Shown: positions 1 through 12,657, counted from the first letter of the stretch. The stretch: DNA of 64,000 nt from an uncultured bacterium (GCA_965232985.1 CBDDRC010000042.1:361907-425906), one strand, 5' to 3'. Notes: generated by a model from the sequence alone, not told the origin. A program made the numbers and translations.

Positions 1-53
1 CTTGCGACACCGGTTGCGTTCGCGCATGACCCGGCTGAACATGCGAAGGAAAT

Positions 54-85
54 CAGCACAGTCGGTGCCGGCCCCGACTGTGCTG
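54..85 (+). other. GC-rich stem-loop (12-bp perfect stem) immediately upstream of the Met-rich ORF
   Basis: CAGCACAGTCGG (54-65) is the exact reverse complement of CCGACTGTGCTG (74-85). No U-tract follows, so it could be a terminator of an upstream gene or a regulatory hairpin. Confidence 0.4.
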
Positions 86-87
86 CC

Positions 88-273
88 ATGAAGAACATGG
101 ATATGTCGACGCTGGCCATGAACGACCCGGTCGCACAAGCCATGCACCAGAAGTGCATGCAAGCGCAAGGCACGGATGGAGATCGCGCCGGCCACGACAT
201 GAAGTCGATGCCCATGCCCATGCCGATGCCGATGCCGAAGAAAACCGACGCACCCGATCAAGGGAGCCACTGA
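88..273 (+). CDS. Small Met-rich protein (61 aa), putative Cu(I)-binding peptide
   Basis: 12 Met in 61 aa, including SMPMPMPMPMPKK, plus His and Cys. Its TGA overlaps the ATG of the downstream oxidase (TGATG at 271-275). No obvious signal peptide or strong SD. Confidence 0.5.
   Translation: MKNMDMSTLAMNDPVAQAMHQKCMQAQGTDGDRAGHDMKSMPMPMPMPMPKKTDAPDQGSH
208..237 (+). repeat. (ATGCCN)x5 hexanucleotide tract encoding MPMPMPMPMP
   Basis: atgcccatgcccatgccgatgccgatgccg read directly; in frame within ORF 88-273. Confidence 0.9.
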
Positions 274-1748
274 TGATCAGCCGCCGCACCCTGCTGCAAA
301 TCATCGGCGTCGGCAGCGCCGGCCTGTTCGCCGGCCTTGCCCGCAGCGCGCCCGCCGCTCACGACATGAGCGACATGGCCAGCATGGAGATGCCCGAGCC
401 GGCCACGCCAGCACCCGTATCTGCGCCAGCGGATCCAACTACGCCGGATATGCTGCCGCCAGCAAAACTGCAGCGACACCCTCAGGGTTACCTGCCGGTG
501 CGCACGCTGAACGGCTGGACGCTGCCGTACAAACTCAACGGCGGTGTGAAGGAATTTCATCTTGTTGCGGAAGAAATCGAGCATGAATTTGCGCCGGGAT
601 CGCGCGCCAAATGCTGGGGCTACAACGGCACCACGCCGGGGCCGACCATTGAAGCCGTAGAAGGTGACCGCGTACGCATTTTTGTCACCAATCGCTTGGG
701 GGAATGGACCAGCGTGCATTGGCATGGCATCGATTTGCCCGCTGGTTACGACGGCGTTGGCGGTCTTAACCAGCCGCACATCAAGCCGGGTGAAACTTAT
801 GTGTACGAATTTATTCTGCGCCAGCACGGCACGCACATGTATCACCCCCATGCCGACGAAATGACGCAGATCGCGTTCGGCATGATGGGCCTTTTCATCA
901 TCCACCCGAAAAAACCCGAAGAAGTACGGATTGATCGCGATTACGCTTTTTTGCTGCACAACTGGGCGCTGCATCCGGGCACCTGGCGACCGGATCCGGC
1001 GGTAATGCTCAACTTCGATATCTGGACCTTCAACAGCAAGAGTTTTCCGGCCATCGAACACCTGGTGATGCGCACCGGTGAGCGCATGCGCATCCGCATC
1101 GGCAATGTGTCGATGTGGAACCACCCCATTCATCTGCACAGCAATCCGTTCTGGGTTACCGGTTCCGATGGCGGTCGCTGGCCACGATCGCAATGGCGGC
1201 GCGAAGTCACCGAAATCATCGGCGTGGGCCAGATGCGCGATCTCGAATTTATTGCCACTGAACCGGGCGACTGGGCGCTGCATTGCCACATGAGTCATCA
1301 CACGATGGGGCCAATGGGTCATGAGTTGCCCAATGCGGTTGGTGTTGATCAATCGGGCGTGGAAGATGAAATCCGCAAAGCGTTGCCCGGGTACGTGGCC
1401 ATGGGGAAAAGCGGCATGGCCGAGCACGCCGGTCATGTGGCCATGGGCATGTTGCCTGGCCCGAAAAATACGCTGCCGATGATGGCCGGCGAAGGACAAT
1501 TCGGCCCGCTTGAAATGGGCGGGATGTTCACGGTTGTAAAAGTGCGCAACGACATGAAAACTGGCGATTACCGCGATCCCGGCTGGTATGCCTATCCGCC
1601 GGACAAAATCGCGCGCCGGATCAGTGACGATCCAAACTTCGGCAGCCCGCAGCGGCAAAATCCCTATGCCACGACAAACGAAATGACCACAACGCCGGCA
1701 GCGGCGACATCCGCGCCAGTCCCAGGCCATGCCGGGCATGGCGAATAA
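273..1748 (+). CDS. Tat-exported multicopper oxidase (copper-resistance type)
   Basis: ATG at 273 is preceded by AAGGGAG. Twin-arginine signal MISRRTLLQIIGVGSAGLFAGLARSAPA. Copper-ligand motifs HWHG, HPHADEM, HLHSNPF and HCHMSHH. Met/His-rich C-terminal segment. The ORF-track start at 153 gives an Arg/His-rich non-signal extension and was rejected. Confidence 0.9.
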   Translation: MISRRTLLQIIGVGSAGLFAGLARSAPAAHDMSDMASMEMPEPATPAPVSAPADPTTPDMLPPAKLQRHPQGYLPVRTLNGWTLPYKLNGGVKEFHLVAEEIEHEFAPGSRAKCWGYNGTTPGPTIEAVEGDRVRIFVTNRLGEWTSVHWHGIDLPAGYDGVGGLNQPHIKPGETYVYEFILRQHGTHMYHPHADEMTQIAFGMMGLFIIHPKKPEEVRIDRDYAFLLHNWALHPGTWRPDPAVMLNFDIWTFNSKSFPAIEHLVMRTGERMRIRIGNVSMWNHPIHLHSNPFWVTGSDGGRWPRSQWRREVTEIIGVGQMRDLEFIATEPGDWALHCHMSHHTMGPMGHELPNAVGVDQSGVEDEIRKALPGYVAMGKSGMAEHAGHVAMGMLPGPKNTLPMMAGEGQFGPLEMGGMFTVVKVRNDMKTGDYRDPGWYAYPPDKIARRISDDPNFGSPQRQNPYATTNEMTTTPAAATSAPVPGHAGHGE

Positions 1749-1770
1749 TTTCCAGCAGAGGATTCAATGC

Positions 1771-2337
1771 ATGAAAACATTCATCACATCAGTGCTATTG
1801 ATTGGTGTACTGACGATTCTCGGTGGCGTGGCGTTTATTTATTCAGGCGCGTATCCGGTCGGCGCCGACAACCACCACACGGCGCCGGTGCACTGGGCTT
1901 TGGAAACACTCCGAAAACGCTCCATTGCCGCGCAAAGTGCGGATATCAAAGTGCCGCCACTTGATGATCCGCAGATGCTGTTGTCGGGCGGTACCGACTA
2001 CAATGACATGTGCGCCGGTTGTCACCTGAAACCGGGAAAAACCCGCTCGGATATGAGTCTGGGCCTGTATCCCGTGCCGCTGAACCTGGCGGCCCCTGCC
2101 GTTACAACCGATGTTGGCAACAACAACGCAGAAAATCGTGAACGCGCAGCCGCGCGACAGTTCTGGGTCATCAAGCACGGCATCAAGGCTTCCGGCATGC
2201 CGGCCTGGGGCATAACCCACGACGACCCGCGTATCTGGGCCATGGTCGCGTTTGTGCAACGGCTGCCGACGCTGACGCCGGCGCAGTACCAGATCCTGAC
2301 GGTACGGGAGCCTGCCGATGCGCGCATGATGCATTGA
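1771..2337 (+). CDS. Membrane-anchored monohaem c-type cytochrome
   Basis: Single CAGCH haem-binding motif. N-terminal hydrophobic anchor MKTFITSVLLIGVLTILGGVAFIY. AGAGGA SD upstream of ATG 1771; 22 nt after the oxidase stop. Confidence 0.8.
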   Translation: MKTFITSVLLIGVLTILGGVAFIYSGAYPVGADNHHTAPVHWALETLRKRSIAAQSADIKVPPLDDPQMLLSGGTDYNDMCAGCHLKPGKTRSDMSLGLYPVPLNLAAPAVTTDVGNNNAENRERAAARQFWVIKHGIKASGMPAWGITHDDPRIWAMVAFVQRLPTLTPAQYQILTVREPADARMMH

Positions 2338-2473
2338 CTACCCGGACACTTTTGTTTTTCCACAGCCCGCGAGGAGCACGCGCCATGTGCCGGAATTTAT
2401 TCCGTGCGCTGTTACACAGACCAACAAGCCTGCCTGACGCCAGGCTCCAGAACATTTCTGCAGGAGAACGCAA

Positions 2474-3853
2474 ATGGAAATAGGATTTTTCGGTGCCGCC
2501 GGCACAGTCACCGGCTCGCGCTACTTGGTGAGTTCGGAAAAATCCCGTGTCCTGATTGATTGCGGATTGTTTCAGGGCTACAAACAATTGCGCGAACGCA
2601 ACTGGGCGGAGTTGCCCTTTGAGGGCGATACGCTGGATGCTGTCCTGTTGACACATGCGCATCTCGATCACAGTGGTTATTTGCCCCTGCTGATCAAAAA
2701 CGGCTTTCGGGGGCCAGTGTATTGCACGCAAGCCACCGCTGCACTGTGCGCCATTTTACTGCCCGACAGCGGCCGCCTGCAGGAAGAACAGGCCGACAGC
2801 GCCAACCGCCACAAGGCGTCAAAACATTCGCCAGCATTGCCGCTGTATACCGAAAAGGATGCGGCGCGCGCACTGGAATACCTGGAAGAAATGCCATTCA
2901 ACCAGGAGTTCGCGGTAGCGAATGATCTACACGCACGTTTTTTGCCTGCCGGACATATCCTGGGTGCGGCGATGATCCAGTTGCGCGATGACAAAACGCG
3001 CATCCTGTTCAGCGGCGATCTCGGGCGACCCCACGATACGATCATGCAGCCACCGGCCGACATGCCAGAAACGGATTATCTGGTGGTTGAATCCACATAC
3101 GGCAACCGGCTGCACGATGCTCGCGATCCACATATCCAGCTGGGTGAAATCATCCAGCGTACCGCCGCGCGTGGCGGCATCGTGATCGTGCCTTCATTTG
3201 CCGTGGGGCGCACTCAAAGCCTGCTGTGGTGCATCCATCGACTGAAGTCAGAAGGACTCATTCCGGCACAACTGCCCGTTTATCTCAACAGCCCGATGGC
3301 GATTGATGTCACAGCCATCTACCATCAACACCGAAGCGAACATCGCCTGACACCGGAACAATGCGATGCCATGTGCCATACGGCGCATTATGTCAACAGT
3401 GTTGAGGAATCGAAGGCGCTCAATGACCGCCATGGCCCGATGATCATTATTGCCGGCAGTGGCATGGCAACGGGCGGACGTGTCGTGCATCACCTGAAGG
3501 CTTTTGCGCCTGATGCACGCAATACCATTGTTTTTGCCGGTTTCCAGGCGGGGGGTACACGCGGTGCGTCCATGCTGGCGGGGGCCCCGACCATTCGCAT
3601 TTACGGTGAGGATGTGCCGTTGCGTGCGGAGGTGGCATTGATCAATGCACTTTCCGCACACGCTGATTATGCCGAGGTACTTGCCTGGCTTGGCAGTGCA
3701 AAGAAGCCGCCCCTGAAAACGTTTATCACGCACGGTGAGCCGGATGCGTCGGATGCGTTGCGCCTGCACATTCAGGACACCTTGGGCTGGCGTTGCTCCG
3801 TACCCGCCTATCGTGATGTGGTTGAACTGAATGATGGCAGCGCAGGACGGTAA
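2474..3853 (+). CDS. MBL-fold beta-CASP hydrolase (RNA-metabolising metallo-beta-lactamase family)
   Basis: HAHLDHSG (HxHxDH) motif, a beta-CASP-like middle region and a C-terminal SAHADYAE...THGEP motif typical of the CPSF73/RNase J-like family. AGGAGA SD upstream. Confidence 0.85.
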
Positions 3854-3860
3854 GCCGGCA

Positions 3861-5393
3861 ATGAACAACCACGCGTTGCGCCTGCGTGCGCTGGGTATCG
3901 ACACCCAACAGCAATACGTCATCTATATGCGCAGCGACTGCGAAGTCTGCCGCGCCGAAGGGTTTGAGGCGCGGACGCGTCTTGAAGTAATTTTGGGTGA
4001 TCGCCACATCATTGCCACACTCAACATGTTGCGCCCGGATATGGCGCAGGCTGATGGCGTGCAAACCACGCTGCTGGCAGCCGGCGAAGCGAGTCTGTCG
4101 ATCAGTGCGTGGCAGGCATTGGGTGCGGTACCGGGTGACAGCATCAGGGTGGCGCATCCACCGACGCTTGATTCCCTGGGGGCCATGCGCGCCAAGATAT
4201 ACGGCCATCGGCTCGAAGCATCGGCATTGAGCGCCATTATCGGCGACGTGGTTGCCGGCCACTATTCGGACATCCACCTGGCGGCTTTTCTGAGTGCCTG
4301 TGCCGGCGGCCGCATGGATCTGCAGGAAACGATTGATCTGACCGGTGCCATGGTTGACGCAGGCGACCGCATCGATTGGGGAAGCACGCCCATTGCCGAC
4401 AAGCATTGTGTCGGCGGCTTGCCGGGCAATCGCACCACGCCGATCGTGGTGGCGATCGTGACGGCGGCCGGCCTGACGATGCCGAAAACCTCGTCGCGTG
4501 CCATTACCTCGCCGGCCGGCACCGCTGATGTGATGGAAACATTGACATGCGTCGATCTCGATCTGCCAACCATGCGCCGCGTGGTCGAGCGCGAGGGCGG
4601 CTGTTTCGTCTGGGGCGGCCGGATGAGCCTGAGCCCGGCCGACGACATTTTGATCCGCGTCGAGCGGCCACTTGATCTCGATAGCGATGCGCAACTCGTA
4701 GCATCCGTACTGTCGAAAAAAATTGCGGCCGGCGCCACGCATGCATTAATCGATATTCCGGTCGGCCCCACTGCCAAGGTACGCAGCGAAGCAGATGCCA
4801 TGCATCTGCAAGCATTGATGGAAAAGGTGGCGCTGGCGCATGGATTGAATGTGCGCGTATTGCGCACCGAAGGTACCCAACCGGTCGGTCGCGGTATTGG
4901 TCCGGCGCTGGAAGCGCATGATGTGCTGGCCGTGTTGCGGCGGGATGTTGCGGCACCGGTGGATTTGCGCGCGCGCGCGCTGGTGCTGGCCGGCGAATTG
5001 CTGGAATTTTGTGGCCACGACAAACCCGGCAGTGGTTATGCAGCAGCCGAAAAACTACTGGCCAGTGGCGCCGCCTGGGAAAAATTCCAGGCAATCTGCG
5101 AGGCCCAGGGCGGCTTGCGTGTGCCGGGTGTTGCCCCGTTGCAGGCAGCGGTATTGGCGACGCATACCGGGCACATTGCCAGCATCGATAACCGGCGGCT
5201 GGCGCGCGCCGCCAAACTGGCCGGCGCACCAGGGGCTTTGACTGCCGGCCTGGTGCTGCATGTGCGGCCGGGTGATCACGTGCAACGAGGCATGCCCTTG
5301 TTCACGCTGCACGCCGAGTCACCCGGGGAGCTCGCTTATGCGCAGCGTTATCTAGCGACACACCCGATCTTCACGCTGACCGACGAGGAGTGA
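3861..5393 (+). CDS. Thymidine phosphorylase family protein, long AMP-phosphorylase-like branch
   Basis: 510 aa. DKHCVGG...[14 protein letters not shown] core of the pyrimidine-nucleoside phosphorylase fold, plus a roughly 90-aa N-terminal extension ([23 protein letters not shown]...). Starts 7 nt after the preceding stop. Confidence 0.8.
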
Positions 5394-5397
5394 TGCC

Positions 5398-6285
5398 GTG
5401 AATACGCCCGTGGTCATCGCCATGCCCGGCAACGAGCGACTCGCCGACGAACTGGTGGCGCTGCTGGGACTGCAGCGTGGCGCAGCCACGGTGCGACATT
5501 TTCCCGACGGCGAATCACATGTGCGAATCGAAACACCGATCGCCAAACGCCATGCACTTATCGTCTGCACACTCGATAGGCCCGATGAAAAACTGGTGCC
5601 GCTGTTGTTGCTGGCATCTGCAGCCCGTGATGCCGACGCGCTGTCGGTAGGTTTGGTTGCGCCTTATCTTGCCTACATGCGCCAGGACCGGCAGTTTCAT
5701 CCGGGCGAAACGATCAGTGCCCGGCATATCGGCGCCTGGATTTCGCAGCATGTCGATTGGCTGGTCACAGTCGACCCGCATCTGCACCGCATTGCCGAGC
5801 TGTCTGCGGTCTACAGCATGCCGTCACGCGTTGTACATGCCGCCGACAGCGTGGCGCAGTGGGTGCGCGCAAACATTCCTCAACCGCTGCTGATCGGGCC
5901 GGATGAAGAAAGCAGGCAGTGGGTGCGGGATGTGGCGCAGCGTGCCGACGTGCCGTTTATGGTGCTGACAAAAACCCGCCATGGCGATCGCGATGTGGCG
6001 GTGTCGGTGCCGGACGTGGAACGCTGGCACGCACACACGCCGGTATTGATTGACGACATCGTCTCGACGGCGCGGACCATGATCGAAACCGTGGCGCATC
6101 TGCGCCGTGCTGGCCTCGCGGCGCCGGTGTGTGTTGCCGTGCATGCGGTATTTGCACAAACAGCGTACGCTGACCTGCGCGCGGCAGGCGCGGCGGAGGT
6201 CGTCAGTTGCGACACGATTATTCATCCTTCGAATCGCATTGGGCTGGCGCCGGCCATCGCGGCGGGTGTGCGCGGGTTTTTGTGA
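5398..6285 (+). CDS. Ribose-phosphate pyrophosphokinase (PRPP synthetase)-like protein
   Basis: GTG start 7 nt after GAGGAG. Motifs [20 protein letters not shown] and the PRPP loop [10 protein letters not shown]. 4 nt after the preceding stop. Confidence 0.8.
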
Positions 6286-6299
6286 AAACGGAGAACATT

Positions 6300-8663
6300 A
6301 TGAATCACGATGAGCACAGGCCACCGGCGAAAGCCACCGAACACAAGGATCCGGTGTGCGGCATGACCGTGCAGGAAAATACACCGCACCGTTACGTACA
6401 CGACGGCCAAAATTATTTTTTCTGTAATCCGAAATGCGTCGCAAAATTCCAGGCCGATCCGCAGCGTTATCTCGCGCCGGCGGGCGCGCAGGGTGAACAA
6501 GCCCCGCCACCGGCGAACGAAGCCGCCGCGCCTGGCACCATCTACACCTGCCCGATGCACCCGGAGATTCGTCAGGATCACCCCGGCGCCTGCCCGAAAT
6601 GCGGCATGGCCCTGGAGCCGGAAATGCCGTCGGCAGAGGAAGAGGAAAATCCCGAGCTCGCCGATTTTCGTCGCCGCTTTTGGTGGACGCTGCCGCTCAC
6701 TGTTGTTGTAACGGCGCTCGCCATGGGCGGCCACCGGCTTGACCTGTTTGATATGGCCACCCAAACCTGGATCGAACTGGTGCTGTCATTGCCGATCGTA
6801 CTGTGGGCCGGGCAACCATTTTTTGTGCGCGGTTTTCAGTCGGTGGTCCACCGCAGTCCGAACATGTGGACGCTGATCGGTCTGGGCACCGGCGCGGCGT
6901 TTGTTTACAGCGTGGCCGCAACCATTGCTCCGCAGTGGTTTCCCGAATCGTTTATGTCGATGGGGCGCATCGGAGTCTATTTTGAAGCAGCAGCAGTCAT
7001 CATCTCCCTGACGCTGCTCGGACAAATACTGGAACTCAAGGCGCGCTCGCAAACATCGGCAGCGATACGCTCACTGCTGGGTCTTTCGCCAAAAATTGCG
7101 CGGCGCATCAACGCCGACGGCAGCGAAGCGGATATCGAAATCACCCATGTGCATGTCGGCGATCAACTGCGTATTCGGCCCGGTGAAAAAGTACCGGTGG
7201 ACGGTGTCGTGGTTGAAGGCAGCAGTGCGATTGATGAATCGATGCTCACCGGTGAACCGATGCCGGTCACCAAGCGCATTGGCGACAAAGTCATCGGGGC
7301 AACGATAAATACCAGCGGCTCACTGGTGATGCGCTCAGAACGCATCGGCTCGCAGACCGTGCTGGCGCAAATTGTGCAGATGGTGGTGCAGGCGCAGCGC
7401 TCGCGTGCGCCAATGCAGCGCATGGCCGATGTCGTCGCCGGCTATTTTGTGGTTGGCGTCGTTTCCATTGCGATCACGACGTTTTTTGCCTGGGGGCTGT
7501 TCGGCCCGGCACAGGGCTGGGTTTACGGCCTGATCAACGCGGTGGCGGTGCTGATCATCGCCTGCCCCTGCGCGCTGGGCCTTGCCACACCCATGTCGAT
7601 CATGGTGGCCACCGGGCGCGGCGCCACCGCCGGCGTGTTGTTCCGCGATGCGGCGGCAATCGAGCACCTGCGCAAGGTCGATACGTTGATCATCGACAAA
7701 ACCGGCACCCTCACCGACGGCAAACCCGCGTTTGAACAAGTCATTCCGGCACCGGATTTTTCCGCGGATGAAGTATTGCGGCTCGCCGCCAGTCTTGATC
7801 AGGGCAGCGAGCACCCGCTGGCTGCCGCAATTGTTGCTGCGGCGCGCGAACGCAAATTAACTCTGGTGAAAGCCGATGACTTTGAGTCCAGCAGTGGTAT
7901 TGGTGTACGCGGGCGCGTTGAAGGCCACGCCCTGGCGCTCGGCAACACGGCCTTGATGGAGCAGATCAAGGTCGATGTCGCGCCGCTGCACGCGCAGGCT
8001 GAAGCATTGCGTGCCGAAGGCGCCAGCGTGATGCATCTCGCGGTCGATGGAAAACTGGCCGGCCTGCTCGCGGTATCCGACCCGGTGAAGGCGACGACGC
8101 CGGATGCGCTTGCCGCTCTGCGTGCCGCCGGGCTGCGCGTAATCATGGCCACCGGCGATGGCGTCACTACGGCAAACGCCATCGGGCGCCGCCTCGGGAT
8201 CGATGAGATCCATGGCGAGGTCAAACCTGCCGACAAACTTGCGCTGGTGGAAAAACTGCAACGTGAAGGCTGCATCGTGGCTATGGCTGGCGACGGCATC
8301 AACGATGCACCGGCACTGGCAAAGGCAAACGTGGGCATTGCCATGGGCACCGGCACTGACGTGGCTATGAACAGCGCACAGTTGACGCTGGTGAAAGGTG
8401 ACCTGCGTGGCATAGCGACGGCACGCAGGTTGTCGCAAGCCACGGTTGCCAACATGAAACAAAATCTGATGTTTGCGCTGGTCTACAACGCACTTGGAGT
8501 GCCGATTGCCGCCGGCGTGCTGTATCCGCTCACCGGCTGGCTGTTGTCACCGCTGATTGCTGCGCTGGCGATGAGCCTGAGTTCGGTATCGGTGATTTCC
8601 AATGCGCTGCGCCTGCGCGGCACGCGTATCGGTACGGCCGCGCAGCATCACCTGCCAAAGTAG
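6300..8663 (+). CDS. copA: Cu+/Ag+-translocating P1B-type ATPase
   Basis: CPC in [32 protein letters not shown]...P and MSLSSVSV motifs. The N-terminus has a YHS/TRASH-like DPVCGMTV...[12 protein letters not shown] module and a CPMHPE...CPKCGM module. Start taken at ATG 6300 (MNHDEH), 14 nt after the prs-like stop. Confidence 0.9.
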
Positions 8664-8701
8664 TGTCCAACTCGTTTCACCCACATCTCCCGGAGGAGAC
8701 C

Positions 8702-9049
8702 ATGAAAGCAGCAACCCTGATGGCACTTGTTACCGCATTCACCCTCACCACCGCGCAGGCGGAAGAGGCCACCACTGCCACCAAAACCATGCCCGCCAAA
8801 AGCATGCCGATGCAGGACATGGCAGGCTGCAAGGACAAACCGTCGCCGCAGCAGATGGAAAAAATGGGCGAGAGCATGCAGAACTGCAAAGAGATGATGT
8901 CCCCAGAGCATATGGAAATGATGCATCAGCATATGCAGGACATGCACTCGACCGCCGCGCCGGGAATGCAGGGCAAGGATGGCATGAAGGATGCCCAGCC
9001 CGCCGCCGACCATGCGGCACATCATCCGGAAACGCCAGCGAAGAAGTAA
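8702..9049 (+). CDS. Secreted Met/His-rich protein, putative periplasmic copper-binding protein
   Basis: GGAGGAG SD. Signal peptide MKAATLMALVTAFTLTTAQA. The mature part is rich in M, H and C (MEMMHQHMQDMH, HAAHHPE). Confidence 0.65.
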   Translation: MKAATLMALVTAFTLTTAQAEEATTATKTMPAKSMPMQDMAGCKDKPSPQQMEKMGESMQNCKEMMSPEHMEMMHQHMQDMHSTAAPGMQGKDGMKDAQPAADHAAHHPETPAKK

Positions 9050-9097
9050 CCCGGTTGTGCTTGTGTATGCGGCCGGCAACCCTTCAGGGAGACAGCA

Positions 9098-9334
9098 ATG
9101 ATGAATTGGACTGGCATGGATGGATGGATGGGCGGGGGCTGGATTTTCATGGCTCTTTTTTGGGTGTTGATCATCCTGGCGGTCGTCGCTCTGGTGCGAC
9201 GGACGGATATCGGCCGCAATGAAAGTCGGGATGCACCCCGCAAAACGCCGATCGAAATACTCCAGGAGCGCTATGCGCGGGGAGAAATCGAGCGTGAAGA
9301 GTATGAGCAGAAACGCCGCGATCTTGACGGCTGA
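9098..9334 (+). CDS. SHOCT domain-containing small membrane protein
   Basis: One TM segment (GWIFMALFWVLIILAVVALV) followed by the C-terminal motif LQERYARGEIEREEYEQKRRDL, typical of SHOCT. Confidence 0.75.
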   Translation: MMNWTGMDGWMGGGWIFMALFWVLIILAVVALVRRTDIGRNESRDAPRKTPIEILQERYARGEIEREEYEQKRRDLDG

Positions 9335-9605
9335 CCGCTTACGCTCGCTCGCGAGGCGCGCAAGAGGGCTTATTCGCATGTCGCAGGCAACACCGCCGCA
9401 CCGAAATGATTCGCCGCCCGGATAAACCCGGCGCCGCACGCACGCACCCGGTGCGCTGACCCGCACAACCGACCGGAAAAACTGCCTTCAGCTTCTGGCA
9501 TCAAACTTGCTTCCTACCTGCACGACGTCGCCTCACCCGAAACGGGGATGAGCGCGACGCCGGCTTGGACGCCGGAATCCTTTCCGCTGCCCGGAGTCCT
9601 GCCCC

Positions 9606-10823
9606 ATGAACCACCCGTTCAGCCTTGTCCCGCACGGCCAGATTACCCGCGTCGACGGCCACGCCACCGGTATTTTCCGCAACTTCACCTGCCGCAGCGT
9701 CTATCAGCCGATCGTGAGCCCCGCACTGATGCGGATGGTCGGCATGGAAGCACTGCTGCGCCTCGACTCACCGGCAGGCACCACCGATCCCGCCGACTTC
9801 TTCGCCGACCTCGACAGCAACGACGTGGTCGATGCCTGCCGGCTGGCGCGTGCCCTGCATGTACTCAACACCCCGACCACAGCCAACGGTAACGAATGGC
9901 TGTTCCTCAACGTGCACCCCGAATCCATACGCCAACGCCGCGCCTCGGCAGAAACGCTGGTGAACGAACTCGCTGCGCTGCACATGACTCCGGCGCGCAT
10001 CGTGCTGGAAATCGTCGAAAGCGCACCGCTGAGCGATGCCGAACTTGCCGCATTTGTCGCGGAATACCGCAGCGCGGGCTTTCGTATCGCCATCGACGAC
10101 TTCGGTGCCGGCGCTTCGAATTACGATCGCGTGCTGGCGGTGCATCCGGACATCATCAAGCTCGATCGCTCGTTGATCGCCAACGCCTCGGCGTCAACGC
10201 GCGCGCAGCGGCTGTTCCCGCACATGGTCGCGCTGTTGCGCGAGTCCGGCTCGCTGGTCCTGGTTGAAGGCGTCGAAACCGAAGCGCAGGCACACATTGC
10301 CATCGATGCCGACGCCGAATTACTGCAGGGCTGGTTCTTCGCCCAGCCAACTGCGCTGCTGGATGCAAACACTCCCTGGCAACTGCGGATTGAGCAATTG
10401 TTCAGCCGCCTGGGCGGCAAACGCACCATCAACGATACCGAACGTTTTCGCAGTCGTTTTCTCGATGTCTGGACGGCGTTTCGTAACGGCACGCCGATCG
10501 AATCGATTGCCGGGGAAATCACCGAACCACAGGTAACCCGGCTCTATGCCATCAATGGCCGCGGCTTTCAGATCGGCGACACGGCGCTCACCTGTCACGC
10601 CTTGCCGGGTATCGAGCACCCGCTGTCGAATGCCAAGGGTGCATGCTGGGCGCGCCGGCATTATTTCCGCAATGCTATGGAGCAGCCCGGCCGCATCCAG
10701 TTGACGCGCCCCTATCTCTCGCTTACCGAACAACGGCTGTGTGCGACCTTTTCCTGTGCCACCTTGCACAAGGAATACGGCCAGTGCGTGATCTGCATGG
10801 ATGTGCTGGTTATGGATGCCTGA
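9606..10823 (+). CDS. EAL-domain c-di-GMP phosphodiesterase with an uncharacterised C-terminal domain
   Basis: YQPIV, EALLRL, LNVHP, EIVES, DDFGAG, KLDRS, EGVETE and QGWFF are all present, so it is predicted catalytically competent. No TM segment. C-terminal ~150 aa of unknown function. Confidence 0.85.
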   Translation: MNHPFSLVPHGQITRVDGHATGIFRNFTCRSVYQPIVSPALMRMVGMEALLRLDSPAGTTDPADFFADLDSNDVVDACRLARALHVLNTPTTANGNEWLFLNVHPESIRQRRASAETLVNELAALHMTPARIVLEIVESAPLSDAELAAFVAEYRSAGFRIAIDDFGAGASNYDRVLAVHPDIIKLDRSLIANASASTRAQRLFPHMVALLRESGSLVLVEGVETEAQAHIAIDADAELLQGWFFAQPTALLDANTPWQLRIEQLFSRLGGKRTINDTERFRSRFLDVWTAFRNGTPIESIAGEITEPQVTRLYAINGRGFQIGDTALTCHALPGIEHPLSNAKGACWARRHYFRNAMEQPGRIQLTRPYLSLTEQRLCATFSCATLHKEYGQCVICMDVLVMDA

Positions 10824-11003
10824 TCGGCAGCAGAGCGCGACACCTGTCGTGGGCTCGCCTGCGAATGGCCACTGCTCCCAGGGCGTCTGCCGCGCGTGAC
10901 GGGGCGGCAAAAGCGCCTTACTGTACCGCCCAGGCTGATCCCGGCGGTGGTGCTACCCTGCCGCAGCCGGCCCCCATCGCTGCCAACACCCGCGAGCACA
11001 ACT

Positions 11004-11708
11004 ATGAGCGACGCCGCAAAAAAGAAGCATTCGTCCCCCGCCACCATGAGCCTCGAACAGGCCATCCGCGAACGCCGTTCAGTGCGCGGCTTTTTGCCCA
11101 CGCCGGTGCCGCAGGATGTGCTCGAACAGGTGTTCGCACTCGCGCAGCAGGCGCCGTCGAACTGCAACATCCAGCCGTGGTATGCGTACGTCTGCTCCGG
11201 CAGCACCCGCGACGAAATGCGGCGCCGCATGATGGCGCACGTCTCGAAAGGCCAGCCAATGAATCCCGACTTCGCGCACACGGCAAAATTCGAAGGCGCC
11301 TACCGCCAGCGGCAAGTCGACTGCGCTGTCGAGCTTTACAACAACATGGGCATCGCCCGCGATGATTCCATGGGCCGCATGAAAGCCCTGATGCGCAATT
11401 TCGAACTGTTCGATGCACCGCACGTGGTGTTCATCGGGATGAATCGCAATTTCGACGTGACCGTGGCGCTTGATGTCGGCATGTACATTCAAACCCTGCT
11501 GCTGACGATGACCGCACACGGCATCGCCTCCTGTGCGCAGGGTGCGATGCGTTACTACCCGGACGACGTGCGCGACATGTTCGGCCTGCCGGCGGAGATC
11601 GCCATCGTGGTTGGCATTTCCTTTGGCTACGAAGATGCCGCTGTCGCCGCCAACCGGACGCGCGTCGGGCGCGCGCCACTGGCCGAGAACGTGGTGTTCC
11701 GCAACTGA
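11004..11708 (+). CDS. Nitroreductase family protein
   Basis: RRSVRGF, PSNCNIQPW and the overall NfsA/NfsB-like layout. The start is uncertain (ATG 11004 or 11046). Confidence 0.75.
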   Translation: MSDAAKKKHSSPATMSLEQAIRERRSVRGFLPTPVPQDVLEQVFALAQQAPSNCNIQPWYAYVCSGSTRDEMRRRMMAHVSKGQPMNPDFAHTAKFEGAYRQRQVDCAVELYNNMGIARDDSMGRMKALMRNFELFDAPHVVFIGMNRNFDVTVALDVGMYIQTLLLTMTAHGIASCAQGAMRYYPDDVRDMFGLPAEIAIVVGISFGYEDAAVAANRTRVGRAPLAENVVFRN

Positions 11709-11718
11709 TCGTCACTGC

Positions 11719-12657
11719 TCAGGCGGTGGTGGTAACCGCCCGCACACCACGCAATGTCGCCAGGCAGGCATCCCGCGCCGTGGCAATGAAATCGCGCGCA
11801 TAGGCCAGCGCCAGATCCTCTTCGCGCAACGCTGCGTACAGCGTGCACCAGATGCCGCCACCCAGCGGCACGGCGTGCACCCAGCCACGGGCCAGGTAAT
11901 CGTGCGCCACCCAGTTCGGCAGCGCCGCGACGCCGCGCCCGCTCGCCACCAGCTGCACCAGCAACTGGGTGTGCTCGGCATGACGAACACGCGCCGGCCG
12001 GACGCCCGCCGGCAGCAGGAAGGTGCGGAACAGGTCGAGGCGATGTTCATCCACCGGATAGGCGATCAGCGTTTCGTCGGCAAGATCGGCTGGATTCACA
12101 AACGCCCGCCGCGCGAACGGATGGTTCGGCGCCACCAGCAGCACCGACTCGTATTCGAATAACGGCAGCGCCGCGAGGCCGGTACGTGCCTCCGGATCCG
12201 AAGTAATCACCAGGCTGAGTTCACCAGCGAGCAGCGCCTGCTGCGCGTCTGCATGCATGCCGCCCCGAAAATCCAGTTCGACATCGGGCCAGTGGCGCCG
12301 GAATGCATCGACCACCGGCATCAGCCAGTCGAAACAACTGTGGCATTCAATCGCCAGCACCAGACGCCCGGCGGTACCCGACTGCAGGCGGCCGAGTTCG
12401 CGCTCTGCCTCTGCGCTCGCCGCCAGCAGCGCGTCCGCAAGCGTAAGCAAGCGCTCACCGGCACGGGTGAATTGCAGCGGCCGGGTTTTGCGCACCAACA
12501 CCGGCATGCCGATGCCGGTCTCGATCTCGCGCAACTGATGCGACAGCGCCGACGGGGTCAGGTGCAGGCGGGCTGCGGCCTCCGTGAGGGAACCGGTATC
12601 GGCGATGGCTCGCAGGGTGCGCAAACCCCGCAGATCAGGGACCGATATCTTATTCAT
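11719..12657 (-). CDS. metR: LysR-family transcriptional activator MetR
   Basis: N-terminal wHTH LRTLRAIADTGSLTEAAARLHLTPSALSHQLREIE. Divergent from metE, with MetR boxes in the intergenic region. Confidence 0.8.
   Translation of the reverse strand: MNKISVPDLRGLRTLRAIADTGSLTEAAARLHLTPSALSHQLREIETGIGMPVLVRKTRPLQFTRAGERLLTLADALLAASAEAERELGRLQSGTAGRLVLAIECHSCFDWLMPVVDAFRRHWPDVELDFRGGMHADAQQALLAGELSLVITSDPEARTGLAALPLFEYESVLLVAPNHPFARRAFVNPADLADETLIAYPVDEHRLDLFRTFLLPAGVRPARVRHAEHTQLLVQLVASGRGVAALPNWVAHDYLARGWVHAVPLGGGIWCTLYAALREEDLALAYARDFIATARDACLATLRGVRAVTTTA

Follow-up and report, generated by a model that had tools for sequence, protein, structure and literature searches.

In archaea, AMP (adenosine 5'-monophosphate)/NMP (nucleoside 5'-monophosphate) phosphorylase opens the pentose bisphosphate pathway, and the enzymes known to produce ribose-1,5-bisphosphate (R15P) from NMPs are those of the AMP-phosphorylase family. 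The enzyme of Thermococcus kodakarensis, for which structures are available (PDB 4GA4/4GA5/4GA6), has R15P isomerase and type III RuBisCO as its archaeal partners. In Escherichia coli, R15P is tied to phosphoribosyl pyrophosphate (PRPP) by PhnN, which converts R15P and ATP to PRPP and ADP (Hove-Jensen et al. 2003, as cited in PMC9700705), and R15P is the sole known substrate of PhnN (PMC9700705). In Bradyrhizobium diazoefficiens, genes annotated as the same three families as those considered here (bll3117-bll3116-bll3115) form a FixK2-dependent operon (PMC6515984, PMC9104804). Here, a trio of genes was examined in a stretch of 64,000 nucleotides from an uncultured bacterium (GCA_965232985.1 CBDDRC010000042.1:361907-425906; the whole stretch is referred to as the window). 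The trio encodes a ribonuclease (RNase) of the beta-CASP metallo-beta-lactamase (MBL) type, a phosphorylase-like protein of the thymidine phosphorylase (TP) superfamily and a ribose-phosphate diphosphokinase-like (Prs-like) protein, as follows.

2474-3853, plus strand: beta-CASP metallo-beta-lactamase RNase, TTHA0252/CPSF73 type, 459 residues (Pfam Lactamase_B, Beta-Casp, RMMBL)
3861-5393, plus strand: AMP/NMP-phosphorylase-like member of the thymidine phosphorylase superfamily (TIGR02645/PRK04350), 510 residues (NCBIfam models, PDB matches, tree, signature residues)
5398-6285, plus strand: Prs-like ribose-phosphate diphosphokinase, PRK07199 subfamily, class-III-like, 295 residues (NCBIfam models, nearest structures, motifs)

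The evidence set out below tips slightly in favour of the trio being a copy of a widespread, horizontally mobile, stress-induced operon core, which would recycle RNA-derived nucleotides towards R15P and PRPP. Known already are the routine annotation of such genes and their low-oxygen induction, which is tabulated in two Bradyrhizobium papers (PMC6515984, PMC9104804). What is rated as new is the prediction that bacteria have their own version, tied to PRPP, of the archaeal entry into ribose-bisphosphate metabolism by way of NMP phosphorylase. An earlier note on this DNA held that the function of such a trio has not been defined experimentally in bacteria, and no functional study of the bacterial phosphorylase, of a Prs of the PRK07199 subfamily or of the fusion proteins described below was indeed found in the searchable full-text literature.

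The phosphorylase-like protein

Judged by its matches, the 510-residue protein is a member of the N-terminally extended, AMP-phosphorylase-like branch of the superfamily and not an ordinary thymidine phosphorylase of the DeoA type, a placement that was suggested in the earlier note and is upheld by both hidden Markov models and a tree. Among the NCBIfam models, the protein scores 648.8 bits against PRK04350 (cut-off 434) and, over residues 6-499, 576.1 bits against TIGR02645 (cut-off 434.6), whereas its scores against the canonical models TIGR02643, PRK05820, TIGR02644 and PRK06078 are all far under the cut-offs (130 versus 570.7, 185 versus 269, 180 versus 409 and 127 versus 559, respectively). 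The best match in the PDB is the T. kodakarensis AMP phosphorylase 4GA5 (305 bits, E = 1e-89, residues 69-493), with a core identity of about 45-50%; the best nucleoside phosphorylase, a pyrimidine-nucleoside phosphorylase (PyNP), reaches 116 bits. In a neighbour-joining tree of 107 sequences, which is unbootstrapped and has short internal branches, the window protein lies within a bacterial clade inside the AMP-phosphorylase-like radiation, with E. coli DeoA on a long separate branch.

The window protein and the T. kodakarensis enzyme have in common the superfamily branch, the N-terminal extension and a set of signature residues unlike those of E. coli DeoA. However, the window protein is bacterial, belongs to a separate subclade, differs over the first ~65 residues and is partnered by a beta-CASP RNase and a Prs in place of the isomerase and RuBisCO. 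The signature consists of substitutions relative to DeoA (D92 to N, V93 to R or K, G114 to S, G118 to T, H119 to S and F210 to K) that are common to the window clade, the Thermococcus enzyme and a PhnN-fused clade described below. In the numbering of the window protein these residues are N190, R191 (K in the T. kodakarensis enzyme), S212, T216, S217 and K306, and the active-site motif reads GGLPGNRTT (pattern GGxPGN[RK]T). The phosphate and base ligands K84, S113, T123, S186 and K190 are kept in the window and fusion clades, and the alignment puts V at K84 in the Thermococcus enzyme itself. The new basic residues R191 and K306 presumably bind the 5'-phosphate. An AlphaFold model of the protein, built from a 15-sequence alignment, had a mean predicted local distance difference test score of 65.7, with the active-site region below 50, and was not used.

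Among the longer relatives, P0168, P0192 and P0241 (950-1017 residues) are TP-like proteins split by an intein with a LAGLIDADG endonuclease domain, which lies within the Glycos_transf_3 catalytic alpha/beta domain; at a guess, these proteins are archaeal.

The Prs-like and beta-CASP proteins

The 295-residue protein scores 415.8 against PRK07199 (cut-off 322) and 185 against TIGR01251 (cut-off 113), and falls under the cut-offs of the class I bacterial Prs model PRK01259 (121 versus 297) and of the archaeal model PRK00934 (204 versus 296). The nearest structures are the class III PRPP synthases of Methanocaldococcus jannaschii (1U9Y) and Sulfolobus solfataricus (4TWB), which are similar in length (284-291 residues) and in which the FxDGE, RQDR, H, KTR and DDIxST elements are likewise kept. 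Unlike these archaeal enzymes, the window protein belongs to a bacterial subfamily, PRK07199, that nearly always adjoins or is fused to a TP-like gene. The ATP-binding, catalytic-loop and ribose-5-phosphate (R5P) motifs are all present (FPDGE, RQDR, DPH, KTR and DDIVST), including the RQDR (here within MRQDRQ) and DDIVST quoted in the earlier note. Since the Prs motifs are intact and PRK07199 is matched while the class I model is failed, the protein looks like an active diphosphokinase of a distinct subfamily as opposed to a second housekeeping copy, and the possibility raised earlier that it is simply a second canonical PRPP synthetase is contradicted by the same two scores. A class-III-like Prs would probably stay active where ADP or GDP inhibits, and so shuts off, the class I enzyme of housekeeping metabolism.

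The 459-residue protein exceeds the Pfam cut-off for each of Lactamase_B (130 bits), Beta-Casp (58.8 bits) and RMMBL (56.3 bits), and carries HAHLDH together with the remaining metal-binding motifs. The nearest solved structure is the beta-CASP RNase TTHA0252 of Thermus thermophilus (PDB 2DKF; 263 bits), which has the same three-domain architecture and size; Cas14 and the archaeal and eukaryotic CPSF73-type nucleases score lower, and the protein is far under the Cas14 and aCPSF1 equivalog cut-offs. An identity as Cas14 was rejected, the match being 361 bits against a cut-off of 800 and covering only positions 1-425 of the 612-position model, with the C-terminal part absent. TTHA0252 is not known to be tied to a phosphorylase/Prs pair, whereas the beta-CASP RNase considered here is a frequent yet dispensable first gene of the module formed by the three families.

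Conservation, plasmid carriage and gene fusions

A pattern scan of one genome per species gave at least 418 contigs with a relative of the phosphorylase-like gene. The best 80 were taken further, and synteny was counted by tblastn at the 70 loci that had adequate flank on both sides. A gene caller of our own, based on third-position GC content, mis-called several genes and was used only for recurrent neighbour clusters, the counts being taken from tblastn and deposited annotation. The complete arrangement, MBL-TP-PRS in the same order and on the same strand (PRS denoting the Prs-like gene), was present at 35/70 loci, with MBL-TP only at 17/70 and TP-PRS only at 8/70; conserved synteny of the trio in other genomes, a point raised in the earlier note, was therefore found. 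The module occurs in Burkholderiales, Thiobacillus-like bacteria, Acidiferrobacteraceae, Thalassobaculum (alpha-proteobacteria) and one metagenome-assembled genome of Blastocatellia, and the order-conserved synteny spans alpha-, beta- and gamma-proteobacteria and Acidobacteria. Conservation in dozens of plasmids and genomes places this gene order far outside what chance would give. Public annotation ('thymidine phosphorylase family protein', 'ribose-phosphate pyrophosphokinase') would be in keeping with ordinary salvage genes grouped by chance or hitch-hiking, namely a normal thymidine/pyrimidine nucleoside phosphorylase, another canonical Prs and an RNase unrelated to them. However, this is very improbable and is already contradicted, both by the scores against the canonical TP/PyNP and class I Prs models, which are far under cut-off, and by the occurrence of order-conserved synteny across phyla and of gene fusions.

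The TP-like gene is present on 125 plasmid records, 49 of them conjugative and 16 mobilizable, and the Prs-like gene on 112. Taxon counts for the two genes on plasmids are nearly equal (29 and 30 in Sphingobium, 7 and 7 in Ralstonia, 5 and 5 in Legionella, TP-like first) and the reading frames often overlap, and the phosphorylase and Prs therefore appear to be a dedicated pair. Plasmid carriage, along with the relationship of the beta-CASP domain to Cas14, could also be taken as the mark of an anti-phage or abortive-infection system that depletes nucleotides and travels on plasmids and islands. This is the least probable of the explanations weighed here, however, and was rejected on the grounds that PADLOC was negative for the trio's TP and PRS, giving weak MBL-fold matches for the nuclease only. 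In addition, the Cas14 match falls short as described above, the Bradyrhizobium operon is chromosomal and regulated by FixK2 and microoxia, and elsewhere the module forms part of lengthy operons for stress or transport, with an overlap into an ATPase gene.

Among 1.84 billion cluster representatives searched, 5002 were relatives of the phosphorylase-like protein, 586 of them at E up to 1e-30, and the best 150 include three kinds of longer protein: PhnN fusions, Prs fusions and a possible triple fusion. The PhnN fusions, which have ~590-690 residues with an extra N-terminal domain and number at least 14 cluster representatives as judged by length and alignment offset, form a sister clade of the TP-like enzyme. 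In all four of the fusions scanned, the N-terminal domain exceeds the PhnN cut-off (164-212 bits versus 156; TIGR02322), and homologues in Bosea, Xanthobacter, Methylobacterium, Pseudomonas and Oxalobacteraceae bear the NCBI name PhnN. The E. coli route from R15P to PRPP is thus paralleled by a bona fide PhnN domain in the sister clade, whereas the PRPP-forming partner in the window is a Prs homologue, the known chemistry of which starts from R5P. Fusions of TP to Prs in operon order are represented by P0390, P0393 (23 members), P0394 and P0400, and with weaker domain support by P0471, whereas P0137, a singleton, has the reverse order. The 1193-residue P0424, from a 15-kb ENA contig, has Beta-Casp, TP and Prs domains in operon order and could be a genuine triple fusion or a frameshift artefact at overlapping stop/start codons. 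By tblastn, a PhnN-like gene was absent from loci L001-L084, of which nearly all belong to the Prs-associated clade, and from the window, where the best E was 0.11, and PhnN and Prs therefore look like alternative partners. The two kinds of fusion, PhnN-TP and TP-Prs, provide independent support for a link between R15P and PRPP.

In Bosea vestrisii (L085, 7148-10043) and Pseudomonas typographi (L086, 7160-10037), a gene for a phosphoribosyltransferase of the quinolinate phosphoribosyltransferase (QRPTase) type, which is NadC-like, lies directly before the PhnN-TP fusion, and in P. typographi an NMT1/phosphonate-type ABC importer is encoded upstream of it. The pairing suggests a PRPP-recycling cycle, in which a base and PRPP would yield a nucleotide, the nucleotide would yield a second base and R15P, and R15P would be returned to PRPP.

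It is also conceivable that the TP-like enzyme is itself a PRPP-dependent phosphoribosyltransferase with TrpD-like chemistry, which would draw PRPP from Prs or PhnN, the module then building a nucleotide or other metabolite, possibly a modified one. Both fusion partners are PRPP-forming, the superfamily includes anthranilate phosphoribosyltransferase and the window protein gives a weak TrpD match, and the PhnN-TP fusions adjoin the PRPP-using QRPTase-like gene. However, the TrpD score is 37 bits against a cut-off of 199, and both the core identity and the signature (GGxPGN[RK]T, with K at the position of DeoA F210) match the NMP phosphorylase of Thermococcus, which is dependent on inorganic phosphate (Pi). 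Moreover, R15P, the only known substrate of PhnN, is the phosphorylase product, and sequential conversion of R15P to PRPP explains the fusion more simply. A phosphoribosyltransferase function is considered improbable as a result.

Low-oxygen expression and neighbouring genes

The B. diazoefficiens operon is the sole copy of the module found with expression data. In microoxia its proteins are increased 2.1-4.4 log2-fold and its mRNAs 5-15-fold (PMC6515984), whereas in a fixK2 mutant its transcripts are decreased 6.6- and 30.6-fold, and a FixK2 box, ATGATCTGGGTCAA, is located at -74 (PMC9104804). The same regulon includes oleate hydratase, phosphoketolase with acetate kinase, and a DUF2933-ICMT operon. 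The operon differs from the window cluster in gene order (TP-PRS-MBL as opposed to MBL-TP-PRS) and in having a FixK2 box, and an adjoining copper pump is not reported in B. diazoefficiens. In the window, no FNR/FixK box (TTGAT-N4-ATCAA, with at most one mismatch) is present near 2338-2473, the sole nearby match being at 1339, within a multicopper oxidase (MCO) gene; the window begins at this gene, and any promoter farther upstream is out of sight.

Similar trios in stress or low-oxygen islands had been mentioned in the earlier note, and correctly so, since the B. diazoefficiens operon is induced in microoxia and genes for universal stress proteins (USPs), phosphoketolase and acetate kinase neighbour the trio elsewhere. 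Recurrent neighbours of the module comprise DUF3141, DUF2933, ICMT, a lycopene-cyclase-domain protein, type II glyceraldehyde-3-phosphate dehydrogenase (GAPDH), cyclopropane-fatty-acid (CFA) synthase, DUF6629, LemA, TPM and MFS, as well as phosphoketolase, acetate kinase, MCRA and ABC1. In Cupriavidus taiwanensis a USP gene is directly upstream of the module, and genes for hemerythrin proteins, a PAS-HisKA_3 kinase and a P2-type ATPase are also present, while ackA-pta, alcohol dehydrogenases, three USPs, catalase and mgtA are near the module on Sphingobium pSH1. Gene families in common with the lxa locus of Burkholderia cenocepacia (PMC3721108) are a metal-dependent RNase (BCAM0300 at lxa, where it is up 30-fold), acetate kinase, a cation-transporting ATPase, USPs and a nitroreductase. 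However, no TP-like or Prs-like gene is listed for lxa (PMC3721108), and the DNA upstream of the window trio has no copy of the lxa motif TGA-N6-TCA.

An archaeal-type S-adenosylmethionine (SAM) synthase (PF01941) is encoded near the module in Burkholderia pseudomultivorans (L081, 2451-3679, called as two pieces), and the Bradyrhizobium methionine adenosyltransferase gene 'mat' (bll7989) adjoins the FixK2-controlled DUF2933-ICMT operon. The neighbouring SAM synthase may supply SAM for the ICMT and CFA-synthase methyltransferases.

Proposed route

In the reading favoured here, the beta-CASP RNase would degrade RNA to 5'-NMPs, as expected of its family, and the TP-like enzyme would convert NMP and Pi to free base and R15P, a prediction that follows the core identity and active-site signature it has in common with the Thermococcus enzyme. 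The ribose-phosphate would then enter the PRPP/pentose-phosphate pool alongside a dedicated class-III-like PRPP synthase. PRPP is the likely hub, the phosphorylase being fused to Prs or to PhnN in sister lineages, and from there ribose-phosphate could pass to salvage or NAD synthesis via PRPP, or to ATP via phosphoketolase, acetate kinase and GAPDH. AMP released by Prs might be one substrate of the phosphorylase, which would also explain the fusion. The module would be used under energy or oxygen limitation and metal stress, the window copy lying inside a copper-resistance island. If the biochemistry holds, this would constitute an unrecognised bacterial route from RNA and NMPs to PRPP, working while the housekeeping Prs is inhibited, and would bear on hypoxic persistence in rhizobial nodules and on Burkholderia-type anoxic survival.

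Several points weigh against such a route. The phosphorylase-like protein is under the cut-off of the AMP-phosphorylase equivalog TIGR03327 (AMP_phos, EC 2.4.2.57; 420.9 versus 535 bits) and is in a different subclade of the tree from the Thermococcus enzyme, R15P isomerase and RuBisCO are absent from the recurrent annotated neighbour families of the related loci, and the activities of the bacterial clade are predicted from family membership. The RNase is dispensable in nature, because the TP-like gene occurs alone at 10/70 loci and because the MBL gene is largely deleted in the nearest relative of the window cluster, L001 (93% identity over TP-PRS-ATPase), where comparison of 463-1000 with window 2267-3839 shows that only the first 200 nt or so of the MBL gene are left and that the cytochrome c gene is partly missing. 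Low-oxygen control is not indicated at the window cluster, since there is no FNR/FixK box nearby, and co-transcription of the cluster is predicted from gene spacing. Finally, the Prs-like protein retains all motifs of a normal R5P and ATP diphosphokinase and no enzyme converting R15P to R5P or PRPP is encoded in the window, so that the module is not demonstrably self-contained. The self-contained path from RNA through NMP and R15P to PRPP that was proposed in the earlier note is therefore retained here for its R15P/PRPP link, which the PhnN-TP and TP-Prs fusions back, and not for its self-containment.

Association with metal-transporting ATPases

The trio is flanked in the window by the following features.

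153-1748, plus strand: multicopper oxidase (MCO, CopA/CueO-type; Pfam Cu-oxidase_3, Cu-oxidase_2), assigned to the copper island, outside the trio
1729-2337, plus strand: c-type cytochrome (Pfam Cytochrome_CBB3), with a 20-nt overlap with the MCO gene and an 87% identical counterpart in the related locus L002
2338-2473, no strand: 136-nt intergenic region, which holds the inverted repeat CGGAAT-TT-ATTCCG at 2391-2404 and is a recombination joint relative to L002
6300-8663, plus strand: P1B-1 Cu+/Ag+-exporting P-type ATPase with N-terminal YHS and HMBD metal-binding domains (TIGR01511; Pfam YHS, HMBD, E1-E2_ATPase)
8702-9049, plus strand: Met/His-rich secreted protein (GGAGGA ribosome-binding site, signal-peptide-like N-terminus)
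9098-9334, plus strand: small membrane protein with a SHOCT domain (Pfam SHOCT), the final gene of the co-directional cluster, with a 271-nt gap after it

The ATPase scores 576.7 against TIGR01511 (cut-off 397), carries the CPC, YN....P, MSLSS and DKTGT motifs of the P1B-1 Cu+/Ag+ CopA type, and is 94-96% identical to the ATPases of L001 and L002. A P-type ATPase gene was found within the fetched sequence at 37 of the 70 loci with adequate flank, at most 5 kb away in 27, and the P1B-1 signature in 35 of 42 neighbouring ATPases; ordinary genome content would lead to an expectation of a few per cent for such an ATPase neighbour, a general estimate and not a computed figure. On a conjugative Roseovarius plasmid, the genes are arranged as DUF5676-MBL-TP-PRS-Cu-ATPase-DUF2933-ICMT, with 4-nt frame overlaps from MBL through the ATPase, and on a Martelella plasmid as TP-PRS-Cu-ATPase, with PRS and the ATPase overlapping by 4 nt. 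Ralstonia pB1901 and B. pseudomultivorans have HMA-DUF2933-ICMT-MBL-TP-PRS-CFA synthase-DUF6629-P1B ATPase-MFS, the DUF6629 gene being annotated 'hypothetical protein' on pB1901. The earlier note had described the position of a metal pump in the trio's transcript as unexplained; the arrangement is not peculiar to the window, recurring as it does on plasmids of several genera and in many genomes. The linkage is easily testable, and is located on mobile resistance islands in bacteria from the environment and in opportunists, Ralstonia, Cupriavidus, Legionella and Sphingobium being examples.

Copper-resistance clusters of the copA-DUF2933-ICMT type are described in Alteromonas and other marine gamma-proteobacteria (PMC8478169), and these accessory genes also border the module in L002, L003, L081, L087, L090 and L091, whereas the window itself is without DUF2933 and ICMT. 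The words phosphorylase, metallo-hydrolase and pyrophosphokinase have no occurrence in the text of PMC8478169 as reached by word searches, and the clusters described there therefore appear, to that extent, to be without the trio. In loci of the Polaromonas, Variovorax, Ralstonia and Burkholderia types, the P1B ATPase commonest beside the module has IACPDALG (CPD) in place of CPC, with YN....P and MxxSS kept (L003 1100-3340, with equivalents in L009, L012-L019, L026, L035-L037 and L081).

It is possible, if rather unlikely, that a bacterial nucleotide-phosphorolysis pathway (NMP to R15P to PRPP, in Prs-type and PhnN-type variants) is functionally coupled to P1B heavy-metal ATPases. If so, it would be a metabolic arm of metal and hypoxia tolerance, for example by recovering ribose-phosphate from RNA damaged by metal or anoxia as the pump removes the metal. 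A module that serves metal resistance as such, by clearing copper-damaged RNA or nucleotides or by raising PRPP so that histidine or NAD can be made as metal buffers or cofactors, would account for the ATPase counts given above, for the 4-nt overlaps of PRS and Cu-ATPase on the Roseovarius and Martelella plasmids, and for the presence of HMA, DUF2933, ICMT, CopC, CusF and MCO genes as neighbours. The expression data found concern low oxygen only, however, and the DUF2933-ICMT genes of B. diazoefficiens are themselves targets of FixK2 and microoxia, so that the 'metal' neighbours may be part of a general low-oxygen stimulon. Since, in addition, the Sphingobium and Cupriavidus modules lie amid USP, alcohol dehydrogenase, ackA-pta and hemerythrin genes and not amid copper genes, metal resistance as the specific role is considered improbable, much as a phosphoribosyltransferase function is.

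Organisation of the window cluster

The open reading frame table and junction sequences confirmed the spacing reported in the earlier note, the three co-directional genes being separated by 7 and 4 nt and the gene for the 787-residue ATPase beginning 14 nt past the Prs-like stop; from 3853 onwards, the successive gaps down the cluster are 7, 4, 14, 38 and 48 nt. The MBL gene ends in TAA and the Prs-like gene uses a GTG start, and ribosome-binding sites are present before the genes at 3861 (GGACGG), 5398 (GAGGAG) and 6300 (GGAGA). For the TP-like gene, the start at 3861 is favoured over an alternative ATG at 3831 because homologues align from residue 1 of the 510-residue form. The Met/His-rich gene had earlier been given a GTG start at 8663, overlapping the ATPase stop, but ATG 8702, with its strong GGAGGA site and signal peptide, is likelier. 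The short gaps, the ribosome-binding site belonging to each next gene and the lack of room for a terminator at 6285/6300 indicate that the cluster at 2474-9334, which comprises the trio, the CopA-type Cu+ exporter, the Met-rich periplasmic protein and the SHOCT protein, is most probably transcribed together. A promoter and terminator scan was uninformative, the terminator-like matches being weak and inside genes.

The suggestion of one six-gene unit was upheld in that the genes are co-directional, tightly spaced and equipped with ribosome-binding sites, but not as a fixed arrangement. The junction between PRS and the ATPase is common to the window and L001, whereas in L002 the space from the PRS stop to the ATPase start is taken up exactly by a 6.46-kb insert (6100-12560). 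The insert encodes a choice-of-anchor I protein, a Fic/HTH pair (toxin-antitoxin-like) and a YgjP-like metallopeptidase, and because of this interruption the exact six-gene unit is regarded as a local mosaic. L002 also has DUF2933 and ICMT genes in place of the 136-nt gap, without homology to the window there. The island as a whole appears to be a mosaic, since identity to L002 differs by segment (88% upstream, 83% in the trio and 94% in the ATPase). The first 9 kb have a GC content of 57.5-62%, as against mostly 62-66% beyond, codon third-position GC is 0.62-0.69 at window 1-9500 as against 0.70-0.82 at 9500-30000, and GC skew, near zero or positive up to ~9 kb, turns negative from there on. 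This composition fits a horizontally acquired island abutting core genes, the left end of which would be outside the window.

The element at 2391-2404, described in the earlier note as a 14-nt palindrome, is present as a 6-nt inverted repeat, but the TT centre that it flanks is non-palindromic, and the repeat is at chance level and not conserved. An equally good repeat occurred in 12% of shuffles of the 136-nt gap, and such repeats occur at 0.36 per 136 nt throughout the window. No second exact copy of the core, GGAATNNATTCC, exists within the window, the inverted repeat was found upstream of the MBL gene at 0/57 related loci, and no palindrome common to the related upstream regions was found. 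In L001 the counterpart reads CCGGCATGTATTTCG, in which three substitutions break the repeat although the surrounding region is ~80% conserved. A role as conserved operator was rejected on these grounds, namely the 0/57 loci, the broken copy in L001 and the shuffle frequency. The 136-nt gap contains no sigma-70 match, and no Rfam family matches 1-11000 at E up to 1.

Several of the flanking genes recur at related loci. An MCO gene is upstream of the module in L029, L031, L040, L074 and L077, and SHOCT proteins are encoded near it in related loci. The Met/His-rich protein has no match in a Pfam scan, and Met-rich proteins recur beside the module in L029-L033 and L043. Downstream of the cluster are genes for an EAL protein and a nitroreductase, followed by those for a housekeeping LysR regulator, MetE and PEP (phosphoenolpyruvate) carboxylase. 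The nitroreductase-family gene (10896-11708) lies just past the island and the EAL gene; nitroreductases are typical of low-oxygen regulons, as with lxa BCAM0279 and B. diazoefficiens blr4652.

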